Shown piece after piece: positions 27,255-27,838 of a DNA stretch of 64,000 bases. Below the pieces are notes generated by a model, which saw only the letters and a list, made by a program, of their open reading frames with translations, made no database searches and was not told the origin of the DNA. How positions within the stretch are numbered: position 1 is the first letter of the stretch; every line of letters begins with the position of its first letter. Source of the DNA: a virus. Taxonomy: Duplodnaviria; Heunggongvirae; Uroviricota; Caudoviricetes. The position numbers and the translations under genes are program-made. The DNA lies in IMG/VR virus record IMGVR_UViG_2675903278_000002; one strand, given 5' to 3'.

Positions 27255-27680
27255 ATGTTAGGTTTCTTCAAAAAGAAAACTCGTAAAGCTGTTATCGAAG
27301 TCAAAAAAATGGAGAACCGTGATGCGGTTGAGGCCACCGTGTGGGGCGCGTACATGATCTCCTATGCCGACGGCACATGTGACGCAAAAGAAATTGCCAT
27401 TCTTGAGAAGACAATTGCAGCTCTGCCTGCGTTTTCTCCGTTTGCTGGTGAAATTGCCCAAATGAGCGCCAATATCCGTGCTCGTTACGAAGCGTCCCCT
27501 CGTTCTGCTAATGCACAGGCTATTCGTGAGCTGTCTGATATTGCGGGTACTCCAGAGGCGGTCGATGTTCTGTGTCTGTGCCTTGATATTGCCGACCAAG
27601 ACGGTATTGGCGAACAAGAAGAGCTGGCCCTGAAAAAGATCGCACAGGCGCTTCAGTTGTCACTGGATGCTTATCTCTAA
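27255..27680 (+). CDS. TerB-like domain protein
   Basis: 141 aa; helical acidic pattern resembling TerB (ADGTCDAKEIAILEK ... DIADQDGIGEQEELALKKIA). Confidence 0.45.
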   Translation: MLGFFKKKTRKAVIEVKKMENRDAVEATVWGAYMISYADGTCDAKEIAILEKTIAALPAFSPFAGEIAQMSANIRARYEASPRSANAQAIRELSDIAGTPEAVDVLCLCLDIADQDGIGEQEELALKKIAQALQLSLDAYL

Positions 27681-27838
27681 TGCTTGAGAGATTCCGGCTT
27701 GTGACCGTCATTGCTCTTCTGGTGATGGCGGTGTTGGTGGATTTTACGGGAAAGATGATGTCTGTCATTTCTGATGGCGTCCTCATTGGTCTGGCGATCT
27801 ACTTCGCTTATCCGCTAGTCCGTAAAGCAACGTGTTAA
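27680..27838 (+). CDS. small membrane protein (52 aa)
   Basis: not in ORF track (below 60 aa); ATG overlaps TerB-like stop (TAATG); two hydrophobic segments; followed by terminator. Confidence 0.4.
   Translation: MLERFRLVTVIALLVMAVLVDFTGKMMSVISDGVLIGLAIYFAYPLVRKATC

Follow-up and report, generated by a model that had tools for sequence, protein, structure and literature searches.

A tciA-tciB-like gene pair in an SSU5-type phage-plasmid and its relation to the P1 tci module

Relation of the locus to described tci and ter genes

The closest described relatives of the locus analyzed here are the tciA-tciB(-tciC) genes of phage P1, the terB/upf69.4 genes of P7 and the orf8/orf7 genes of D6. The locus lies in a 64,000-nucleotide (nt) stretch of viral DNA (Caudoviricetes; IMG/VR record IMGVR_UViG_2675903278_000002), referred to below as the window, where a TerB-like gene at 27255-27680 is followed by a gene for a membrane protein of 52 amino acids (aa) at 27680-27838, both on the + strand; it shares with these relatives both protein families, their order and the overlap of stop and start codons. 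According to our sequence comparisons, 27255-27838 is the SSU5-type phage-plasmid copy of the P1 tciA-tciB module. The encoded TciA shares 80.5% identity with that of P1 over residues 1-123, and the 52-aa protein belongs to DUF3927, the family of which P1 TciB is the archetype (E 7e-31), which bears out the statement of a first-pass annotation, made by a model from the letters of the window, that P1 carries TerB-like tci genes.

The two copies differ in several respects. The window TciB is only 39% identical to that of P1, and the two TciA proteins part over their last 18 residues. The window lacks tciC: a terminator stands directly 3' of tciB, with no comparable open reading frame (ORF) after it. 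Furthermore, the window unit has its own palindromic leader, whereas the P1 unit is located inside the C1-controlled ban operon beside tRNA genes, the P1 annotation placing tciABC between the C1-operator-controlled ban promoters and ban. As a separate observation, the TerB/TciB pair lies inside or beside a tRNA gene cluster in P1, D6, ChrisDB and phiK7B1, which represent four unrelated groups; the window has no tRNA genes.

The window was 98-99% identical to the Escherichia phages CMS-2020a and Cyrano and 81-86% identical, across approximately half of its length, to Klebsiella phage-plasmids and the Salmonella phage SSU5; because of the latter identity, it is classified, by this measure, as an SSU5-type phage-plasmid. 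In the Cyrano record the tciAB genes are named “P1 TciA-like protein” and “P1 TciB-like protein,” and the genes of a second membrane-associated pair, discussed in the last section, “membrane protein” and “Stomatin-like integral membrane protein.” Neither module is new, as both carry annotations in public genomes almost identical to the window, and a new kind of system is unsupported. Annotation of the tciAB genes as a pair goes back to the P1 genome, and a public record with 98% identity names them; they carry little weight as a discovery, and their residual value is that of a pointer to a widespread pair of untested function. By their sequences, the four ORFs and the two pairings are nonetheless well beyond chance: strong family matches were obtained for every ORF, and both pairings were found again in phages that are not related. 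Following the Cyrano annotation, both pairs are situated within a long run of genes of one orientation that serve recombination, replication and nucleotide metabolism, among them those for SSB, exonuclease, RecA, SbcCD, RuvC, ribonucleotide reductase, ThyX, DHFR, methylases and RNase H.

The second system that invites comparison is the bacterial terZABCDE cluster. The fold, the family and two acidic DG...E motifs are common to its TerB (K. pneumoniae, 2JXU) and the window TciA, whereas in comparison with the ter-operon proteins the latter represents a distant clade with a Pfam score just above the threshold. The neighbours are different as well: the window lacks TerC, TerD/E/Z and TerA beside TciA, and the partner is a 52-aa hairpin and not the multi-pass TerC. 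Matches to Ter families were absent from the ORFs neighbouring tciAB, and the annotation of Cyrano (98% identical) lists none of terC/D/E/Z in the 50 kb that correspond to most of the window.

TciA, TciB and the tightness of their pairing

The tciA-like gene encodes a predicted cytoplasmic protein of 141 aa, the assignment of which is based on Pfam, on PHROG 632 (2e-62) and on the identity to P1 TciA. Its match to Pfam TerB (PF05099) reached 28.8 bits against a gathering cut-off of 24.4 (E 1.6e-6). When the single sequence was compared with the PDB, only noise was returned; a family profile built from ten diverse phage TciA homologues, on the other hand, matched the nuclear magnetic resonance structure of K. 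pneumoniae TerB (2JXU) with an E value of 2e-15 over residues 14-137, nearly the full length. The AlphaFold2 model, built on 35 homologues, has a predicted local distance difference test score (pLDDT) of 88.8 and a predicted template modelling score of 0.84, and its six helices form the all-alpha fold expected of a TerB-like protein. The best match of this model found by Foldseek in the PDB was the TerB-like protein 2H5N (PG1108), with a probability of 1.0 and a TM-score of 0.52-0.59, albeit with an E value of only 0.04. On the evidence of profiles and model, TciA is truly a TerB-fold protein of the TerB family.

Residues D39, G40, E46, A113, D116 and E122 are invariant in the ten diverse phage homologues, and G117 is nearly so. 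They form two A-D-G...E motifs, D39-G40...E46 and D116-(G117)...E122, which follow the same pattern across 35 sequences and which we take to be the putative cation-binding sites of the TerB family. Strong conservation is also seen in the first 22 residues of TciA (MLGFFKKKTRKAVIEVKKMENR), the net charge of which is +6, compared with -11 for the remainder; the model leaves residues 1-9 disordered (pLDDT <50).

The tciB-like gene begins within the stop codon of tciA: the TAA occupies 27678-27680, and its final A is the first base of the tciB ATG, resulting in a TAATG junction. The encoded protein matched Pfam DUF3927 with an E value of 1.9e-12 and PHROG 1470 (“TciB-like”) with 7.8e-21. Although a simple hydropathy scan scored almost all of TciB as hydrophobic, the family alignment resolved two hydrophobic stretches (approximately residues 7-20 and 27-44) that flank a conserved polar VDFTGK turn. 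This turn, VDFTG(K/R), is conserved together with S28, D32-G33 and P45, and the ends of the protein are basic. TciB is predicted to be a helical hairpin, both ends of which we infer to be cytoplasmic because they are short and basic and the positive-inside rule would place them there. The TerB-like gene overlapping (TAATG) a 52-aa two-helix membrane ORF, as the first-pass annotation had described it, was found as such, and its call of TerB homology held up in the profile search.

The pairing is tight. A match to the TciB profile was present in 79 of the 80 IMG/VR loci that encode TciA at >=83% identity, and when the start of the TciB ORF was taken as the first start codon, it overlapped the tciA stop in 68 of the 80 (ATGA in 42, TAATG in 26). 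Conversely, a search of species-representative bacterial genomes with an alignment of six TciB sequences revealed 17 DUF3927 loci, 15 of which had a TciA-like ORF directly 5' (in one case truncated to 46 aa). Outside the prophages of Enterobacterales, a DUF3927 gene follows a TerB gene in D6, PPyecE, the lytic Schitoviridae phage FSL SP-058 and the Pseudomonas phage phiK7B1, and, with a weak match (E 0.053), in the Erwinia jumbo phage ChrisDB; in two further phages, a different small membrane ORF occupies the TciB position. Pairs of this type are present in strictly lytic phages, including Schitoviridae, Erwinia jumbo phages and Nickievirus. A tblastn search over 72,556 PLSDB plasmids yielded 789 records with TciA-like genes, mostly phage-plasmids, of which 771 are non-mobilizable and 11 conjugative; among the matches listed, all were phage-plasmid-type TciA/TerB genes. 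With these plasmids, phage-plasmids, prophages, N4-like phages and jumbo phages taken together, TciA/TciB is among the most widespread phage gene pairs of untested function.

In one of the two phages with a different small ORF, the Vibrio phage vB_VpaP-MS02 (375-1923), a gene for a membrane protein of the TerC/Alx family is located directly 5' of a TerB-like gene and the small ORF 3' of the latter is not DUF3927; this may link phage TerB proteins to the classical TerB-TerC partnership. The possibility that TciB is itself a fragment of TerC was considered and rejected, as an hhalign comparison of its profile with a phage TerC gave nothing.

Proposed role of the pair and competing explanations

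The account that we consider best, and that we regard as evenly poised between right and wrong, is that TciB anchors the TerB-fold TciA at the inner membrane and that the pair serves a dispensable function in lytic growth. TciB would insert in the inner membrane with both short basic ends in the cytoplasm and would recruit or hold TciA at the cytoplasmic face. TciA would be present there as an acidic TerB bundle of six helices, the two invariant ADG...E motifs being its putative cation-binding sites, and its conserved basic tail MLGFFKKKTRK, disordered in the model, seems suited to contact anionic lipid or TciB. The outcome may be a dispensable conditioning of the envelope, by which the inner membrane would be kept intact, or would be closed to pore-formers and superinfecting phage. 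By analogy, such an envelope role would echo the phage-inhibition and colicin-resistance phenotypes of ter clusters.

The layout of the locus suggests that tciAB may form its own transcription unit, with an operator-like palindrome, a ribosome-binding site and a terminator. A tentative sigma-70 promoter was read off the sequence at 27182-27211 (+ strand), with TTGACC (27182-27187), an 18-nt spacer and TATGTA (27206-27211), whereas a consensus scan proposed another one, TAGAAA-16-AATAAT, at 27214-27241. A perfect 7-1-7 palindrome, AAAACAA-C-TTGTTTT (27217-27231), stands 23 nt 5' of the tciA start and is a candidate operator. The strong ribosome-binding site and the start codon of tciA follow at 27245-27257 on the + strand (AGGAAAACACATG), and an identical 13-mer at 4158-4170 heads the first gene of the second pair. 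The unit would be closed by an intrinsic terminator at 27841-27870 (+ strand), which is composed of a 9-bp stem with six G-C pairs (hairpin 27841-27862) and then a T-rich tail. An Rfam scan of 25500-29000 gave nothing near any gathering score.

As for expression, we propose that tciAB would be essentially off in the overnight lysogen and would probably come on during lytic growth, along with the early genes of DNA metabolism; its place in the array of such genes and the position of P1 tciABC behind the C1-operator-controlled ban promoters are in keeping with this timing. In RNA sequencing of an LF82 lysogen of Cyrano, CYRAN_85/86 (the tciAB genes) gave values at the detection floor or close to it after overnight culture in LB (PMC9928086, S1 Table), and the authors' list of 13 prophage-expressed genes, termed “morons,” does not include them (PMC9928086). 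Inside macrophages, at 6 h, log2(fpkm+5), where fpkm is fragments per kilobase per million, reached ~4.2-4.8, a rise far below that of the SPFH pair described in the last section (PMC9928086 S1 Table). The dispensable character of the function is consistent with the finding that P1 tciA, tciB and tciC are non-essential by CRISPR interference (PMC10695390).

Several points weigh against this account. CYRAN_85/86 were modestly expressed 1 h after dilution into fresh medium (PMC9928086), and the lysogen keeps the majority of Cyrano genes silent, so that the silence of tciAB is not proof of specific repression. The promoter assignments are consensus matches only and thus candidates, as is the palindrome as an operator. 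The physical interaction of TciA and TciB is a putative one, which we infer from gene order and translational coupling. Covariation between the C-terminal tail of TciA and the type of TciB did not exceed shared phylogeny in 53 non-redundant pairs (Spearman correlation with TciB of 0.80 for the tail versus 0.84 for the rest of TciA). Fusions of TerB and DUF3927, found in P0116 and P0138 (196-197 aa, two TciA subfamilies), were considered as evidence for the pairing and set aside as weak: their junctions resemble one-base frameshifts of overlapping genes, and they are probably assembly errors or pseudogenes and not true fusions.

Many phages encode small membrane-acting division inhibitors, and TciAB could be one more of them, a host-takeover function that blocks or delays cell division in the first phase of infection, the “i” in tci standing for inhibition of cell division. 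The P1 tci genes share their operon region with a dicF-like element, and expression of terZAB leads to filamentation in Y. pestis and E. coli (PMC4633105). However, filamentation was never mapped to TerB alone, and lethality was mapped to terZA (PMC4633105), which leaves this explanation an unlikely one.

Tellurite and colicin resistance had been named in the first-pass annotation as functions with which such modules are associated, and a corresponding explanation by lysogenic conversion, in which prophage TciAB would give the host resistance to tellurite, pore-forming colicins or phages in the manner of plasmid ter clusters, has also been proposed by the authors of a study on D6-like prophages (PMC6799933). 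It is consistent with the database label “tellurite/colicin resistance” of the family, with the TciA-like genes on PLSDB plasmids and with a promoter-gene-terminator layout that is typical of a moron. By gene content, however, tciAB would not be a tellurite-resistance determinant, as none of terC/D/E/Z is annotated in the corresponding Cyrano region: tellurite resistance in Y. pestis comes from terCDE, terZAB being dispensable for it (PMC4633105), and a lone terB in a lytic Pseudomonas phage was likewise judged inactive by its authors for want of these genes (PMC8421299). Conversion, and tellurite resistance with it, is also argued against by the strictly lytic phages that keep the pair, by the early-type gene neighbours and by the near-silence of tciAB in the overnight Cyrano lysogen. 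Resistance as the selected role is accordingly unlikely, and we regard lysogenic conversion as a whole as quite unlikely. For the same reasons (retention in lytic phages, near-silence in the overnight lysogen and no terCDE nearby), the database label of the TciA family is probably misleading.

Another explanation is that a free phage TerB domain acts as an anti-defence decoy, interfering with the TerB-using membrane-surveillance defences Shango, Bunzi and Dionysus, in which the TerB domains are thought to be amphitropic sensors (bioRxiv 10.1101/2025.09.30.679545). The occurrence of TciAB in lytic phages and among early-type genes would fit a decoy. Nevertheless, none of the four proteins of the two pairs matched any PADLOC-DB model, including those of the TerB-bearing Shango and Bunzi, at E <= 0.1, which also speaks against the more general association with phage defence suggested in the first pass. 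A simple soluble decoy would have no need of strict pairing with a membrane hairpin. We therefore find the decoy improbable. A broader version, in which phages would express TciA-TciB early to manipulate membrane surveillance of the TerB type or to block the entry of secondary DNA, appears to us just as doubtful; if it were true, the pair would be a counter-defence or superinfection-exclusion module common to temperate and lytic phages, one of several cassettes swapped between copies of the genome-wide operator palindrome. Finally, a toxin-regulator pair, in which TciB would be a small membrane-damaging peptide (holin-like or type-I-toxin-like) restrained by TciA, would fit an acidic soluble protein translationally coupled to a hydrophobic peptide of ~50 aa, but it is highly improbable given the conserved polar residues of TciB (D21 F22 T23, S28, D32 G33 and P45), which are unlike those of generic pore peptides, the non-essential and non-toxic behaviour of the pair in P1 screens (PMC10695390) and its presence in lytic phages that have their own lysis cassettes.

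Palindromic leader, possible cassette exchange and the SPFH lipoprotein unit

The palindrome in the tciAB leader is not confined to this unit. Its core (AAACAAnTTGTTT) was found at 18 positions of the window, giving 34 strand matches versus 3.4 expected, an approximately ten-fold excess. The sites are at 5265, 16996, 27218, 27947, 32488, 39356, 39407, 41020, 42215, 42592, 43076, 43979, 44729, 45214, 54331 and 54356, with weaker copies at 27054 and 48132. Nearly all copies are located shortly 5' of start codons on the + strand, at a distance of 10-30 nt in many cases, and often ~13 nt past an extended -10-like TGnGATAAT. The palindrome is kept at equivalent places in Cyrano, the Klebsiella phage pJN2-26 and SSU5, and in the first two of these also 5' of tciA. 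Taken genome-wide, it is probably the operator of a phage regulator; our literature search found no description of its sequence.

A 20-nt direct repeat with the palindrome inside (27211-27230 and 27940-27959) brackets a 729-bp tciAB cassette. The second copy heads the next gene (27978-28547) and marks the right edge of the cassette. In SSU5 (4157-5141), an anti-repressor gene (ant) stands between the two equivalent copies of the palindrome in place of tciAB, and the tciAB slot is therefore regarded as exchangeable. This suggests an exchange of cassettes by recombination at the repeated leader. The palindrome that heads many small units throughout the genome and brackets an exchangeable cassette is the item that possibly merits a separate follow-up. 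Two small genes located just 5' of tciA are kept in SSU5. The product of the first (26469-26963) has 164 aa and a C-terminus rich in Ser and Cys (PHROG 10411), and that of the second (26973-27161) has 62 aa, including two hydrophobic segments (PHROG 6006).

The second pair, at 4168-5202, had been described in the first-pass annotation as a 66-aa membrane protein coupled to an SPFH lipoprotein, and our analysis agrees with this. The 66-aa protein (4168-4368, + strand) has two hydrophobic segments, a match to PHROG 1130 (“membrane protein,” 2.3e-25) and a conserved loop P-x-L-I-S-x-K-D. The gene for the 276-aa SPFH/Band-7 lipoprotein (4372-5202, + strand) begins three bases past it, and its product matched Pfam Band_7/SPFH over residues 23-209 (2.6e-30) and PHROG 200 (“lipoprotein”) with 3e-108. 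The N-terminus, MKKGLLAVALAAICTMGLTGC-D, is consistent with a predicted signal peptide followed by a lipobox of the pattern [LVI][ASTVI][GAS]C, here LTGC with Asp at +2. The unit is, like tciAB, self-contained: it is preceded at 4080-4138 (+ strand) by a terminator after a recA-like gene (4080-4100) and a promoter-like TTGAAA-17-TATTAT (4110-4138), and is closed by a terminator at 5219-5246 (+ strand), the hairpin of which (5219-5238) has a stem nearly identical to that of 4080-4100. The two hairpins, GGCGTCC...GGACGCC followed by TTTTTATC, flank the cassette.

Among the described relatives, HflK/HflC, other bacterial SPFH proteins and the NfeD-stomatin operons (QmcA-YbbJ and YqiK-YqiJ) share with the window a Band-7 domain with a coiled-coil-like, flotillin-type tail and a small membrane neighbour. 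The best solved relative of the lipoprotein by sequence was HflK (7VHQ, E 0.007), whereas the protein fell far short of the NCBIfam equivalogs, with 30.2 bits against a cut-off of 134.4 for HflC and 18.7 against 159.4 for HflK. The window protein would have a lipid-modified Cys anchor and a periplasmic domain like that of HflK/C, unlike the stomatin-type QmcA and YqiK. The likeness to NfeD-stomatin pairs noted in the first pass thus held for an SPFH domain beside a small membrane protein and failed in that the SPFH domain would be placed in the periplasm and the 66-aa partner lacks an NfeD domain: the partner had no match to any Pfam family at E <= 1, and the OB-fold domain of NfeD could not fit into 66 aa with two transmembrane (TM) segments.

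The nearest relatives are other phage proteins. The SPFH lipoproteins of PHROG 200, such as gp43 of the Burkholderia phage phiE125, gp180 of phiCbK and the “SPFH serine protease” of KpCHEMY26, show full-length homology and contain a lipobox, mostly with a small membrane ORF that overlaps the gene on its 5' side, and the window protein does not differ from them materially. The labels “protease” and “transposase fusion” on some of these records are annotation noise. The lipobox was present in six of six SPFH homologues examined, and its Cys is kept in five phage homologues besides the window. An overlapping small membrane ORF was found 5' of the SPFH gene in KpCHEMY26, phiE125 and phiCbK, and one gene further off in GAP31; in the Klebsiella phage KpCHEMY26 and the Cronobacter phage GAP31, the small two-TM ORFs are homologous to that of the window, and the loop P-x-L-[IV]-S-x-K-D is common to the enterobacterial ORFs and the 66-aa protein. 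Homologues of the lipoprotein occur in 413 phage records of many lineages, and our literature search retrieved no relevant paper on phage SPFH lipoproteins. By its family matches, the pair is a second, unrelated and equally widespread phage cassette, one more member of a common phage family.

Because the protein is a predicted lipoprotein, with a lipid-modified Cys in place of a TM helix as its anchor, its SPFH domain would be periplasmic, at the periplasmic face of the inner membrane. Under the sorting rules of E. coli, Asp at +2 is an inner-membrane retention signal, and its presence in the window protein suggests such retention. An SPFH oligomer may thus be held on the periplasmic face of the inner membrane by its lipid anchor, with the two-TM 66-aa protein as its membrane partner. 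In the Cyrano lysogen, CYRAN_56 was at the floor and CYRAN_57 low in LB (PMC9928086 S1 Table); in macrophages at 6 h, both reached log2(fpkm+5) values of ~7.3-7.7, in step with the capsid and tail genes (PMC9928086 S1 Table).

Elsewhere in the window (~37660-39700), the homologue of CYRAN_100 is a full-length methionyl-tRNA synthetase gene carried on the phage-plasmid, adjoined by a gene for a MinD-like ATPase on the opposite strand and a gene for a LexA-like S24 peptidase.

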